A DNA stretch of 64,000 nt from sequence record MZ375356.1. The stretch is one strand, 5' to 3'. How positions within the stretch are numbered: the first letter of the stretch is position 1; the number at the start of each line of letters is the position of its first letter. A model generated the notes under the pieces. The model was not told the origin of the DNA. It did not search any database and saw only the letters and a list, made by a program, of their open reading frames with translations. Positions 28,701 to 38,619 of this stretch are shown in pieces. Origin of the DNA: Escherichia phage T4. The position numbers and the translations under genes are program-made.

Positions 28701-28716
28701 AGGGGCCGAAGCCCCT
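28701..28716 (-). terminator. hairpin immediately downstream of the hoc remnant (minus strand)
   Basis: Minus strand reads aggggc-TTCG-gcccct followed by TTCTTCATTTTG. Confidence 0.55.
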
Positions 28717-29271
28717 TATGATAATGATACTTCATTAGAAGTAACGCTTAGTGCATCATAATCTGTCGCGGTTACTTGGGCTACGCATTTAATTCTTTTT
28801 ACTCCACTTGTAGTTGGAGTATAGCTAAATGTAGAGTTAGTTTCTCCACCAACTTGTGAATCATCTACATACCACTGATACGTAGCAGATGCTCCATCAG
28901 GTTGAGAAGCTAAGGCAGCAGTAAATTGAACTGGGGTTCCAATCACTCCAGCCGCAGGACTAGCAGGAGTTACGGCTAAGGTAGTCGTCTGTGTCTTATT
29001 TTTAACTGTGATAGTTGTTGTCGCTTCAGCCGTTTCCGGGCCTCCTTCAGAAAGTGTATTTGTTGCAACTACTTTAATAGTCTTTTGACCGGCAGGTCCT
29101 TTTAGCATAACTAAAAGTTGCTTCAGCTCCATCTTGTGGAACATTATCTACGCTCCAAGCATATGTAATAGTTCCGCCTCCAGTTTGACCACTGGGTGTA
29201 GCAGTAAACTGCTTAGTTTCATCAATAACCCCTGTAGGTGTTTTAGGAGTTATATCAACTGTAAAAGTCAT
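28716..29271 (-). pseudogene. hoc: outer capsid protein Hoc, frame-disrupted and lacking the C-terminal half
   Basis: Ig-like N-terminal ORF (29074-29271, MTFTVDITPKTPTG...) and a second Ig-like ORF (28716-29144) in another frame; 556 nt covers about 185 codons, versus about 376 aa for T4 Hoc. Confidence 0.8.
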
Positions 29272-29280
29272 AAGTTATCC

Positions 29281-29961
29281 TTATTTTAATGTTACGAAAG
29301 AAGAGTTGCGTGTTTCACGAATTAAAACTGATCCATCGCGATTAATGTAATAAATTAAGCTAAATAAAGTTTGGTGTGCTGACGCATGTTCAAAACTAGT
29401 TGGGTGAGATTTCCAATCAGGAGTTTCAGCAATCCATTGATAAATCCACCAAGGAACAGTACAGAATCCTGGATTTTTTCCAATCAGTTGAAGATTCGGA
29501 CTAAAGTTTTCCGGAAGAGTAAATACAGACGGCTTTTCAGATTCAATAATCTCAGCTACAGCCTGTTCGAATTTTTCTTCAACAAAAGGAGTATCTTCAA
29601 TCAAAACATCGGTATTTTCAGGAATTTTATCCGTTTCTACTACTTCAATTTTAATGTCAGATTTAATCGGAGAATCAATCAGAAGTGCTGCTTCTGGATT
29701 GACTTCTTCATCGTCATATTTTAATCCCTCTGCGGCATCAGCAGCATCAATTAAGTCTTTAATAGATAACCCATCAGTCTCTGGCATAGGTTCACTAGCG
29801 AGCTTCTGGAGGGCTTCTTCAATATCAACAACGATATTATCAAAAGATTTATTCTTTTTGACCTTTATACCAAACTGTTCAGCATATTCAGCTAATTTAG
29901 CTTTAGCTTCTTTGTTATCATCAAGAGCCTTCAGCTCTGCAATATAATCTTTATCTATCAT
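29281..29961 (-). CDS. inh: acidic 226-aa protein at the T4 inh position (inhibitor of prohead protease)
   Basis: Position between hoc and segE; identity rests on synteny and partial recall. Confidence 0.55.
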   Translation of the reverse strand: MIDKDYIAELKALDDNKEAKAKLAEYAEQFGIKVKKNKSFDNIVVDIEEALQKLASEPMPETDGLSIKDLIDAADAAEGLKYDDEEVNPEAALLIDSPIKSDIKIEVVETDKIPENTDVLIEDTPFVEEKFEQAVAEIIESEKPSVFTLPENFSPNLQLIGKNPGFCTVPWWIYQWIAETPDWKSHPTSFEHASAHQTLFSLIYYINRDGSVLIRETRNSSFVTLK

Positions 29962-30009: not shown

Positions 30010-30538
30010 ATGTACCACTTTGTATATGAAACAACAAATCTAATAAATGGTAAAAAGTATATAGGAAAGCACTCTACTGATGACTTGAATGATGGTTACC
30101 TTGGTTCCGGTAAGGCAATTCAGCAGGCTATAAAGAAATATGGTGAAAACAATTTCTCTAGAACAATACTAAAAGAGTTTAAAACTTCCGAAGAAGCGTA
30201 CATGTATGAAGAAGAAATTATAACTCCTGAACTAATAAAAAGCAAAAATTATAATATGAAACCTGGTGGAATTGGTGGAATTGGTGGAATTGTTATGACT
30301 ACAGATGTTATAGCAAAGATGAAAGAATCTTCCGCTAAAAGATTTGAAAACTCACCGGGCACGGTATTAGGTAAAACTTGTTACTAATGGAACTAAAAAT
30401 ATTTTTATTAAACCTGGAGAACTTGTTCCAGAAGGATTTGTAAAAGGGATGGTTCATCCTAATAGAAAGTCCAGAAAAGGATGTAAAGTCAAACCGACTA
30501 CCACAGGAACTTTTTGGGTCAATAATGGCGCAAAATAA
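30010..30538 (+). pseudogene. segE: GIY-YIG homing endonuclease SegE, frame-disrupted
   Basis: 125-aa ORF with GIY-YIG motif (KKYIGKHSTD...GYLGSG) stops at 30387; the C-terminal continuation (TNGTKNIFIKPGELVPEGFVKG...) runs in the +1 frame to 30538; 529 nt is not a multiple of 3. Confidence 0.75.
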
Positions 30539-30629
30539 ATTAATACAACCAGACGGTATTATTCCCGACGGATTTATTAAAGGTCGTCTCATGAAAAGAG
30601 ATTCTAAAGGCAAATTTAGTAAGGCAATT

Positions 30630-32138
30630 ATGGATATTAAAGTACATTTTCACGACTTCAGTCATGTACGCATCGATTGTGAAGAGAGCACGTTCCACGA
30701 ATTAAGAGATTTCTTTTCGTTTGAGGCCGATGGATATAGATTTAATCCTCGCTTCAGATATGGCAACTGGGATGGACGAATCCGTCTTTTAGATTATAAT
30801 CGTCTTCTTCCATTCGGCTTAGTCGGGCAAATTAAAAAATTCTGTGATAATTTTGGCTATAAAGCCTGGATTGACCCACAAATTAACGAAAAAGAAGAAT
30901 TATCAAGAAAAGATTTTGATGAATGGCTTTCTAAATTAGAAATCTATTCAGGAAATAAAAGAATTGAACCGCACTGGTATCAAAAAGATGCAGTGTTCGA
31001 AGGATTAGTTAATCGTCGTAGAATTCTTAATCTTCCAACATCTGCAGGTAAATCTTTAATTCAAGCTTTGCTTGCGCGATATTATTTGGAAAATTATGAA
31101 GGTAAAATTCTTATCATTGTTCCAACAACTGCTCTGACAACTCAGATGGCTGATGACTTCGTCGACTATCGTTTATTCAGCCATGCAATGATAAAGAAAA
31201 TTGGTGGCGGAGCATCAAAAGATGATAAATATAAAAATGATGCACCAGTCGTTGTTGGTACATGGCAAACTGTAGTAAAACAACCGAAAGAATGGTTCTC
31301 ACAGTTTGGAATGATGATGAATGATGAATGCCATCTTGCTACAGGAAAAAGTATTTCATCTATCATATCAGGTTTAAATAACTGCATGTTCAAATTCGGT
31401 TTGTCTGGTTCATTACGTGATGGCAAAGCCAATATCATGCAGTATGTTGGAATGTTTGGTGAAATATTTAAACCAGTAACGACTTCTAAATTAATGGAAG
31501 ATGGACAAGTAACTGAGCTAAAAATTAATAGTATTTTTCTTCGCTATCCCGATGAGTTCACTACTAAATTAAAGGGAAAAACTTACCAAGAAGAAATAAA
31601 AATTATTACTGGGCTTAGTAAAAGAAATAAATGGATCGCTAAATTAGCTATTAAGCTTGCGCAAAAAGATGAAAACGCTTTTGTCATGTTTAAACATGTA
31701 TCGCATGGTAAAGCTATTTTCGATTTAATTAAAAATGAATACGATAAAGTTTATTACGTATCAGGGGAAGTTGATACCGAAACCCGCAATATAATGAAAA
31801 CCTTAGCTGAAAATGGTAAAGGAATAATTATAGTAGCTAGTTATGGTGTATTTTCTACTGGTATTTCAGTTAAAAATCTGCATCACGTTGTTTTAGCGCA
31901 CGGTGTTAAATCAAAAATCATTGTATTACAAACAATCGGTCGTGTATTACGTAAGCATGGTTCTAAGACAATAGCAACAGTCTGGGACCTCATAGATGAC
32001 GCAGGCGTCAAGCCAAAATCTGCTAATACGAAAAAGAAATATGTTCATTTGAACTATCTTTTAAAACACGGCATTGATCGTATTCAGCGCTACGCAGATG
32101 AAAAATTTAATTACGTAATGAAAACAGTTAATTTATAA
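30630..32138 (+). CDS. uvsW: UvsW helicase (SF2, recombination/repair)
   Basis: 502 aa from MDIKVHFHDF; Walker A (PTSAGKS) and DEAH-like (MNDECH) motifs; the ORF is open 35 codons further upstream (30525). Confidence 0.92.
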   Translation: MDIKVHFHDFSHVRIDCEESTFHELRDFFSFEADGYRFNPRFRYGNWDGRIRLLDYNRLLPFGLVGQIKKFCDNFGYKAWIDPQINEKEELSRKDFDEWLSKLEIYSGNKRIEPHWYQKDAVFEGLVNRRRILNLPTSAGKSLIQALLARYYLENYEGKILIIVPTTALTTQMADDFVDYRLFSHAMIKKIGGGASKDDKYKNDAPVVVGTWQTVVKQPKEWFSQFGMMMNDECHLATGKSISSIISGLNNCMFKFGLSGSLRDGKANIMQYVGMFGEIFKPVTTSKLMEDGQVTELKINSIFLRYPDEFTTKLKGKTYQEEIKIITGLSKRNKWIAKLAIKLAQKDENAFVMFKHVSHGKAIFDLIKNEYDKVYYVSGEVDTETRNIMKTLAENGKGIIIVASYGVFSTGISVKNLHHVVLAHGVKSKIIVLQTIGRVLRKHGSKTIATVWDLIDDAGVKPKSANTKKKYVHLNYLLKHGIDRIQRYADEKFNYVMKTVNL

Positions 32139-33296: not shown

Positions 33297-33335
33297 TGTT
33301 ATTGGTTGTTATTGGATGTTATTGGATGTTATTGG
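33297..33335. repeat. four tandem 10-bp repeats (t/a)TGTTATTGG in the uvsY leader
   Basis: Direct reading: ttgttattgg ttgttattgg atgttattgg atgttattgg. Confidence 0.9.
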
Positions 33336-33349
33336 ATGGACTTAGATTC

Positions 33350-36853: not shown

Positions 36854-38619
36854 AAAAGCCACAAGAAATGCAAACGATGCGTAGAAAAGTTATTTCAGAT
36901 AATAAACCAACACAGGAAGCGGCTAAATCCGCTTCTAATACTTTATCTGGGCTTAATGACATATCTACGAAATTGGATGATGCTCAAGCTGCTTCTGAAT
37001 TAATAGCTCAAACTGTCGAAGAAAAATCGAATGAAATAATTGGAGCAATTGACAATGTAGAAAGCGCAGTGAGTGATACTACTGCCGGTTCTGAGTTAAT
37101 TGCTGAAACTGTCGAAATTGGCAACAATATTAATAAAGAAATCGGTGAATCGCTCGGAAGCAAATTAGATAAATTAACAAGTTTACTAGAGCAAAAAATC
37201 CAGACAGCTGGAATTCAACAGACTGGAACTAGTTTAGCTACGGTTGAAAGCGCTATTCCTGTTAAAGTCGTTGAGGATGATACTGCTGAATCTGTGGGTC
37301 CTTTATTACCAGCTCCTGAAGCAGTTAATAATGATCCTGACGCTGATTTTTTCCCTACCCCTCAGCCAGTTGAGCCAAAGCAAGAATCACCAGAAGAAAA
37401 ACAGAAAAAAGAAGCATTTAACTTAAAATTATCTCAAGCTTTAGATAAATTAACGAAGACTGTTGATTTTGGATTTAAAAAATCCATTTCAATTACTGAT
37501 AAAATATCAAGCATGCTATTTAAGTACACCGTCAGTGCTGCTATTGAAGCTGCTAAAATGACTGCAATGATATTGGCTGTTGTTGTTGGAATAGACCTTT
37601 TGATGATTCACTTTAAATACTGGTCAGATAAATTTTCAAAAGCCTGGGATTTGTTTAGTACAGACTTTACCAAATTCTCTAGCGAAACCGGAACTTGGGG
37701 TCCTTTATTACAGAGCATCTTTGATTCTATTGATAAAATTAAACAACTTTGGGAAGCGGGAGATTGGGGTGGATTGACAGTAGCTATTGTTGAAGGGCTT
37801 GGAAAGGTTCTTTTTAATTTAGGTGAACTTATTCAATTAGGTATGGCTAAATTATCTGCAGCAATTCTTCGAGTCATTCCTGGTATGAAGGATACTGCTG
37901 ATGAAGTAGAAGGAAGAGCATTAGAAAATTTCCAAAATTCTACTGGAGCATCTCTCAATAAAGAAGACCAAGAAAAAGTAGCAAATTATCAAGATAAACG
38001 AATGAATGGAGACCTTGGCCCAATAGCAGAAGGACTAGACAAAATCTCTAACTGGAAAACTCGTGCATCTAACTGGATTCGTGGTGTAGATAATAAAGAA
38101 GCGCTGACTACCGACGAAGAGCGTGCGGCAGAAGAAGAAAAATTAAAGCAACTTTCACCGGAAGAAAGAAAAAATGCTTTAATGAAGGCTAATGAAGCTC
38201 GTGCTGCGATGATTCGTTTTGAAAAATATGCCGATTCAGCTGATATGAGTAAAGACTCAACGGTTAAATCAGTTGAAGCTGCCTATGAAGACCTTAAAAA
38301 ACGGATGGATGACCCGGATAATAATTCACCGGCAGTTAAAAAAGAACTTGCTGCTAGATTTTCTAAAATTGATGCTACTTATCAAGAGCTCAAGAAAAAT
38401 CAGCCTAATGCCAAACCTGAAACTTCTGCTAAATCACCAGAAGCGAAACAAGTCCAGGTGATTGAAAAGAACAAAGCACAGCAAGCTCCTGTTCAACAAG
38501 CATCTCCTTCGATCAATAATACTAATAATGTTATTAAGAAAAATACTGTCGTTCATAATATGACACCTGTAACGAGCACGACTGCTCCTGGTGTATTTGA
38601 TGCGACTGGAGTTAATTAA
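36850..38619 (+). CDS. 29: tail length tape-measure / hub protein gp29
   Basis: 589-aa ORF at the T4 gp29 position. Confidence 0.9.
   Translation: MKKPQEMQTMRRKVISDNKPTQEAAKSASNTLSGLNDISTKLDDAQAASELIAQTVEEKSNEIIGAIDNVESAVSDTTAGSELIAETVEIGNNINKEIGESLGSKLDKLTSLLEQKIQTAGIQQTGTSLATVESAIPVKVVEDDTAESVGPLLPAPEAVNNDPDADFFPTPQPVEPKQESPEEKQKKEAFNLKLSQALDKLTKTVDFGFKKSISITDKISSMLFKYTVSAAIEAAKMTAMILAVVVGIDLLMIHFKYWSDKFSKAWDLFSTDFTKFSSETGTWGPLLQSIFDSIDKIKQLWEAGDWGGLTVAIVEGLGKVLFNLGELIQLGMAKLSAAILRVIPGMKDTADEVEGRALENFQNSTGASLNKEDQEKVANYQDKRMNGDLGPIAEGLDKISNWKTRASNWIRGVDNKEALTTDEERAAEEEKLKQLSPEERKNALMKANEARAAMIRFEKYADSADMSKDSTVKSVEAAYEDLKKRMDDPDNNSPAVKKELAARFSKIDATYQELKKNQPNAKPETSAKSPEAKQVQVIEKNKAQQAPVQQASPSINNTNNVIKKNTVVHNMTPVTSTTAPGVFDATGVN

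Follow-up and report, generated by a model that had tools for sequence, protein, structure and literature searches.

Two deletions break hoc in the genome-reduced T4 strain T4_583L, whose virions are predicted to lack Hoc

We found that hoc is broken by two deletions in the 64,000-nucleotide stretch of Escherichia phage T4 DNA analysed here (sequence record MZ375356.1; the window). It is very likely that this stretch comes from the genome-reduced strain T4_583L, that hoc acquired both lesions within that lineage during CRISPR/Cas9-based iterative genome reduction (CiPGr), and that its virions, as predicted from the remaining coding capacity, carry no Hoc. The allele is neither natural nor new, and a fragment of it already stands in the GenBank annotation of T4_583L. 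The window covers T4 from gene 6 as far as frd.1, with an identity of 99.6-99.9%; set against a reference 99.7-99.9% identical to it, the hoc lesions are, as judged by alignment, a specific change and no chance pattern.

T4_583L, at 151,790 bp, is the smallest T4 obtained by CiPGr (Yuan et al., Nucleic Acids Res 2022, PMC9825161). The method takes phages, here wild-type T4, through 300-600 passages on SpCas9-bearing E. coli MG1655 with a pooled library of plasmids; each of these has a spacer and a repair template of 2 x 50 bp designed to delete 100 bp or a whole gene, and the library spared structural and known essential genes (PMC9825161).

Two deletions account for all differences in hoc

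Pairwise alignment with the T4 reference (AF158101; hoc of 1131 nt, 376 aa), the check that an earlier note on this DNA had named, revealed two differences only, a 2-bp deletion and a 579-bp deletion, so defining both the indel and the deleted segment; the locus is neither collinear nor in frame with full-length hoc. The earlier note, made from the letters and a list of open reading frames (ORFs), had held that hoc is frame-disrupted, its N-terminal ORF stopping near the opening of a second one, and the alignment places the cause at codon 56, where the 2-bp deletion lies. The absence of the 3' half, likewise proposed there, corresponds to the 579-bp deletion, with which codon 185 and everything up to and including the stop are lost. 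The features of the locus are as follows.

29281-29961, minus strand: inh, intact, 226 aa, the upstream neighbour of hoc
29074-29271, minus strand: hoc fragment 1, a 65-aa ORF from the ORF listing that starts MTFTVDITPKTPTG and ends EATFSYAKRTCRSKDY, then stop
28716-29144, minus strand: hoc fragment 2 in its longest form, 142 aa, from the ORF listing; it contains MLKGPAGQKTIK and ends SNEVSLS, then stop
28716-29108, minus strand: hoc fragment 2 in its GenBank form, 130 aa, starting at the ATG at 29108
29105-29106, minus strand: junction of the 2-bp deletion, where TA of codon 56 (GTA) is lost, giving a frameshift; alignment GTTATG(TA)CTAAAAGG, lost bases in parentheses
29099-29117, no strand assigned: remnant of the inverted repeat at the 2-bp deletion, CTTTTAG-TTATG-CTAAAAG, with a perfect 7-bp stem
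28721-28722, minus strand: junction of the 579-bp deletion in the alignment, GTATCATTA joined to TCATAAGGGG, with 1 nt of placement ambiguity
28716-28718, minus strand: TAA, the stop codon now used by hoc, in the wild type 3 nt 3' of the hoc stop
28717-28700, minus strand: native intrinsic terminator hairpin of hoc, AAGGGGCTTCGGCCCCTT, GGGGC-TTCG-GCCCC, then a T-rich tail

In one of its two equivalent placements, the 579-bp deletion removes exactly codon 185 through the native TAA, leaving 552 nt of the 5' part of hoc, and the two sides of the junction share at most 1 nt; in the wild type, a CGG motif directly follows its left breakpoint. The 2-bp deletion falls in an inverted repeat that reads CTTTTAGT-TATGT-ACTAAAAG in wild-type hoc, with an 8-bp stem, and it took the last base of the loop together with the first base of the right arm. 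The folding energy of this repeat as DNA is -5.4 kcal/mol in the wild type (z = -2.9) versus -4.6 kcal/mol in the window.

The two ORFs overlap on the minus strand and jointly span 556 nt, ending at a GC hairpin as the earlier note had described, and this hairpin proved to be the native terminator of hoc. Its stem of seven pairs, five of them GC, closes on a TTCG loop and is followed by TCTTCATTTT, which qualifies it as an intrinsic terminator; alignment showed the same hairpin in T4 and T2, and the new TAA stands directly in front of it. The gene order inh-hoc-24.3 is kept around the broken gene. Both lesions are also present in a second assembled genome, that of T4_7t1 (OL964745.1).

The remnants of hoc lack the capsid-binding domain

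Hoc consists of three Ig-like domains and a conserved capsid-binding domain (residues 281-376), which docks at the centre of the gp23 hexamer (Fokine et al. 2023, PMC10385173), and the full-length T4 chain is present in the solved capsid structures 5VF3 and 8T1X. The length of 376 aa and the C-terminal position of the capsid-binding domain, both given in the earlier note, agree with the reference and with this structural work (281-376, PMC10385173). In the wild-type protein, Pfam assigns residues 101-158 to a PKD domain and 193-283 to an I-set domain.

Fragment 1 comprises Hoc residues 1-55 followed by 10 out-of-frame residues (AKRTCRSKDY) and a stop; it is identical to GenBank UJD20389.1 of T4_7t1, and a Pfam search of its 65 aa returned zero matches. 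The 130-aa form of fragment 2 is composed of Met, Hoc residues 57-184 and Ser, and equals exactly GenBank QZB89788.1, annotated as 'head outer capsid protein'; Pfam detected one PKD domain above the cut-off in fragment 2. The remnants encode at most residues 1-55, or residues 57-184, the latter representing part of Ig-like domain 1 plus domain 2, and the frameshift uncouples the N-terminal 55 residues from the remainder. Codons 185-376 are absent, and with them Ig-like domain 3 (I-set, 193-283) and the capsid-binding domain (281-376). We found neither one unbroken ORF of about 376 aa between inh and 24.3, nor a string of three Ig-like/PKD domains, of which one PKD match is left, nor the capsid-binding domain defined by Fokine et al. 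(PMC10385173). Because everything from residue 185 on is deleted, no hoc product can attach to the capsid, in support of the earlier claim that the remnant cannot decorate it. The virions are predicted, from the sequence, to be without Hoc fibres on their gp23 hexamers.

The loss of Hoc would appear to carry no growth cost in the laboratory, and a burst size of 109 was reported for T4_583L versus 120 for the wild type (Yuan et al., PMC9825161). Known since 1977 to be dispensable, Hoc affects the stability of the capsid only marginally, and it influences the dispersion and aggregation of particles.

The truncated gene might nevertheless make something functional, for example a soluble Ig-like adhesin from the 130-142-aa piece. 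A soluble 142-aa fragment could be translated from an upstream ATG at 29144, which lies in the same open frame as fragment 2 and has a plausible Shine-Dalgarno motif (GGAG) 8 nt before it, and the PKD domain passes the Pfam cut-off. Yet such a product would lack the capsid-binding domain and would begin in the middle of Ig-like domain 1, and in T4_7t1 a further 2-bp deletion puts a stop inside the ORF of fragment 2, a sign that selection does not maintain this piece. We consider a functional remnant highly improbable.

The hoc allele is shared with a sibling clone and arose during CiPGr

The window belongs to T4_583L because two of its predicted proteins match that strain exactly, namely QZB89788.1 (130 aa) and QZB89790.1 (125 aa). 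The second of these is a SegE variant of 125 aa that is specific to the window and differs in T4_7t1, whose record is entitled 'Mutant Escherichia phage T4 clone T4_7t1' and whose annotation notes mention 'T4583L_' locus tags. T4_583L and T4_7t1 (PMC9825161; OL964745.1; QZB89788.1, UJD20388/9.1) have an identical hoc allele with the 2-bp and the 579-bp deletion, set against a common background of numerous 1-3-bp losses in dispensable genes; T4_7t1 differs by its one extra 2-bp deletion in hoc and by partly different small deletions elsewhere. Another phage from the same study, T4_3t3 (OL964735.1), has an intact hoc of 1131 nt and departs from the wild type over the whole region by a designed deletion of exactly 100 bp in cd.3 and by a single substituted base. 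Since hoc is intact in T4_3t3, the hoc lesions arose during the CiPGr experiment.

Small deletions accumulate in dispensable genes and favour repeats

We compared the window with wild-type T4 (MT984581) and T4_3t3 and mapped the small deletions by hand onto the gene tables.

25447-63671: small deletions of 1-3 bp at 31 sites, for example 25447, 30381, 45852, 47846, 56812 and 63329

Most of these are 2-bp deletions (23 of the 31), with three of 1 bp and five of 3 bp, while small insertions are almost absent and base substitutions number only 11. The frameshifting deletions lie in segD, hoc, segE, uvsY.-1, 30.2 (four), 30.6, 30.7, 30.8 (two), 31.2, cd.3 (two), cd.4, I-TevIII, I-TevI, frd and intergenic DNA. 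Essential genes are hit by none of the 26, and the 25-kb block of structural genes (gene 6 to gene 23) is free of all 31 small deletions. With essential genes taken as about 56% of the window, a rough estimate, the chance of 0/26 is about 1e-9 (3e-10 computed for 27). This avoidance of essential genes therefore points to selection on real mutations and not to sequencing error. The sole small deletion in an essential gene is an in-frame loss of 3 bp (TTA) at 38319 in gene 29, a tail-length/baseplate hub gene, common to the window and T4_7t1, the latter also having a 3-bp deletion in gene 48. About 19 small deletions are common to the two clones, and each has about a dozen of its own. Yuan et al. 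(PMC9825161) counted 1322 unplanned 1-/2-base deletions, in T4 populations only, and considered 'some of them' probably CRISPR-escape mutations; many deletions of this kind in dispensable genes, as expected of a CiPGr-derived T4, are what the window contains.

The positions of the deletions are far from random with respect to repeats. Loss of one unit of a short tandem repeat explains 15 of the 31, against 5.5 +/- 2.0 for random placement, and none of 5000 random trials reached 15; the repeats concerned are (TA)2-3, (AC)3, (ACG)2, (TAA)3 and homopolymer runs. Perfect inverted repeats with a stem of at least 7 bp contain five of the 31, where about 0.8 would be expected (P = 0.0014; one hairpin accounts for two of them), and the 2-bp deletion in hoc belongs to this class. 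We also considered whether the small deletions cluster, as Cas9 scars, at potential SpCas9 cuts, and they do not, with 32% of the 31 within 2 nt of such a cut versus 36% of random positions. The small-deletion signature is distinctive and only partly explained by the source paper.

A separate observation concerns gene 30.2, where paired complementary 2-bp deletions (45838 and 45852) occupy the arms of an 8-bp palindrome that reads AATATAAC-AAATTAC-GTTATATT in the wild type. T4_7t1 has the right-arm deletion only, and the window has both, which restores a perfect palindrome of 6 bp; the pair looks like a templated quasi-palindrome correction.

T4 DNA is hydroxymethylated and glucosylated, which can cause base-calling trouble on some platforms, and the frameshift, the truncation or both could in principle be sequencing or assembly errors in a phage whose hoc is normal. 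Such errors would have had to produce the same two lesions in two separately isolated and assembled clones, to avoid essential genes or leave a 3-bp change there, and to spare T4_3t3, which comes from the same study and is free of small deletions in the region; moreover, the authors saw 1-/2-base deletions directly in population reads, and the library sequencing was Illumina (PMC9825161). We regard errors as a very unlikely source of the allele. Less likely still is that the strain inherited a natural variant or a classical hoc mutation, such as that of the hoc-deletion display strains, from before CiPGr. Natural T2 does carry a deletion that shifts the frame of hoc at the site of the 2-bp lesion, and hoc-minus T4 strains go back to 1977 (Ishii & Yanagida 1977), but T4_3t3, with the same experiment and starting phage behind it, has an intact hoc, and the T2 lesion is a different one (11 bp versus 2 bp). 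Among the 17 phage records at least 99% identical, OL964745.1 alone aligns unbroken across the deletion. A scan of IMG/VR viral contigs for both hoc junctions yielded none, a weak result given that the positive control found only one T4-type contig. We thus keep to lesions acquired in the CiPGr lineage.

Other changes in T4_583L and T4_7t1

The gene segE (30010-30640) has several 2-bp deletions and a 9-bp tandem expansion, with three copies of GGTGGAATT versus two. The 3' end of segE now shares the frame of uvsW (30525-32138), so that the joint ORF has 537 aa, 35 of them additional at the N terminus; the original start of uvsW (MDIKVHF) is unchanged. At about 33297-33336, in the gap between uvsY and gene 25, a tandem repeat of TGTTATTGG(A/T) is 20 bp longer than in the wild type, and in T4_7t1 it is longer by a further 10 bp.

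Base substitutions in the window are nonsynonymous in 10 of 11 cases (365, 2761, 4445, 10415, 10418, 11224, 18246, 38770, 54516 and 57513). Most of them sit in genes of the baseplate and tail, the changes being gp6 L>I, gp7 A>T and G>D, gp12 H>Y and D>N, wac E>K, gp18 D>N and gp48 T>I. Such a bias would fit adaptation in the course of passaging, and it agrees with the Ka/Ks values above 1 obtained by Yuan et al. (PMC9825161) for T7 and seszw.

Compared with AF158101, T4_7t1 (OL964745.1) has three unplanned deletions of near-equal size (2046, 2046 and 2054 bp), with 0-1 nt of junction homology, extending from nrdG to I-TevII, from nrdC.11 to mobD.1 and from vs.3 to vs.8.

Possible origins of the two hoc lesions

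A deletion that ends exactly at a stop codon hints at a template-directed event, and the 579-bp deletion may have been programmed by a CiPGr repair template, possibly a faulty or chimeric one, with arms ending in GAAGTATCATTA and beginning with TCATAAGGGGC. Its 3' breakpoint is the last base of the hoc stop and its 5' breakpoint the first base of codon 185, the homology at the junction is at most 1 nt, and a designed-looking 905-bp deletion in nrdC.3 of T4_7t1 is likewise flush with a gene boundary and free of junction homology; in addition, 58% of the cassettes differed from the design as cloned (PMC9825161). The designs, with their 50-bp arms, remove 100 bp or an entire gene, whereas here 579 bp are gone and 552 nt of 5' hoc are kept. 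Homology of 0-1 nt likewise marks the junctions of the roughly 2-kb deletions in T4_7t1, which were unplanned, so that a clean junction is no proof of design. We consider a programmed origin possible but the less likely of the two, and lean towards an unplanned one. The main text of Yuan et al. (PMC9825161) does not name hoc.

Two other sources were considered and set aside. Escape deletions arising by minihomology are flanked by direct repeats of 3-13 nt, of which one copy is kept (Wu et al., mBio 2021, PMC8262927); the 579-bp deletion has at most 1 nt of homology, and a nearby ATCAT pair went unused, both copies remaining. For proflavine-type mutagenesis as the source of the frameshifts, a literature search gave nothing relevant, and the CiPGr paper explains the strain.

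Both lesions may have been fixed through the destruction of SpCas9 target sites in hoc, a step that we propose with less confidence. NGG motifs on the coding strand adjoin both lesions, but NGG sites are frequent in T4, and the 31 small deletions taken together are not enriched near potential cuts. For the 2-bp deletion, a candidate target is ACTTTTAGTTATGTACTAAA-AGG, with the deletion at its positions 14-15; at the left end of the 579-bp deletion, the candidate is TTCTAATGAAGTATCATTAA-CGG, with the breakpoint 1-2 nt from the predicted cut and the CGG itself deleted. Both changes would give resistance to such spacers. The 2-bp deletion itself probably arose from misalignment at the hairpin-forming inverted repeat, a step held with similarly limited confidence.

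Comparison with T2, classical hoc mutants and Cas9-escape deletions

The natural hoc of T2 (NC_054931.1; 856-1860 of the aligned stretch) is a pseudogene with three lesions. An 11-bp deletion (GTACTAAAAGG) directly after codon 55 took the whole right arm of the inverted repeat. Further on, an A-run has lost 1 bp and 2 bp are missing near the 3' end, and the gene is annotated as two or three fragments (62 aa; 113-117 aa). As in the window, T2 hoc is split by frameshifts, with the first lesion at the same inverted repeat, and the N-terminal fragments end nearly alike, with ...FSYTCRSKDY in T2 and ...FSYAKRTCRSKDY in the window, each before a stop. In contrast to the window, T2 keeps the full gene length and is a natural isolate that was not selected by Cas9. 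Two independent lineages would appear to have broken hoc at the same hairpin, which, with n=2 events, is suggestive and no more. Our literature search found no open-access paper saying that T2 is without Hoc, and the claim for T2 rests on the DNA alignment.

A wider reading, which we put forward tentatively and hold to be rather doubtful, is that structure-driven mutation, and not simple scarring at Cas9 cuts, produced the frameshift in hoc along with many of the 2-bp deletions that abound in T4 alone. It would act by slippage in short tandem repeats and by templated changes in inverted repeats that form hairpins, maybe stimulated by the repair of double-strand breaks or by the loss of a fidelity factor in these lineages. 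On this reading the hoc repeat after codon 55 would be prone to repeated mutation, and the decay of hoc in T2 would have begun there too.

Classical hoc-minus T4 and the hoc-deletion strains used for display and vaccines are also viable phages that lack the 155 Hoc fibres. Their alleles were deliberately isolated or constructed, whereas the allele in the window has two lesions and came up, probably unplanned, during passaging with a Cas9 library. The escape deletions of Wu et al. (PMC8262927) were selected by Cas9 and, like the hoc allele, affect dispensable T4 genes; a further likeness is that the 579-bp deletion has its left breakpoint 1-2 nt away from where SpCas9 is predicted to cut. The escape deletions differ from the hoc allele in their flanking repeats of 3-13 nt, compared with at most 1 nt at the 579-bp deletion and none at the 2-bp deletion.

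Discussion

The description of hoc given in the earlier note was accurate in every particular, and the loss of hoc that it described is unsurprising and already known, as the loss of a dispensable gene in a published, CRISPR-selected and genome-reduced strain. The hoc lesion matches no designed deletion, and the genotype of T4_583L is not inferable from the library design. What remains curious is mutational, not functional, namely the tandem-repeat and hairpin signature, the deletion pair in gene 30.2 and the site in hoc that is common to T2; the pattern of small deletions is a ready data set on deletion mutagenesis in T4 under Cas9 pressure. Where T4_583L serves as a chassis, or in work on mucus adherence, immunogenicity or Hoc display, its surface is predicted to be Hoc-null, and the properties of the wild type may not be assumed.
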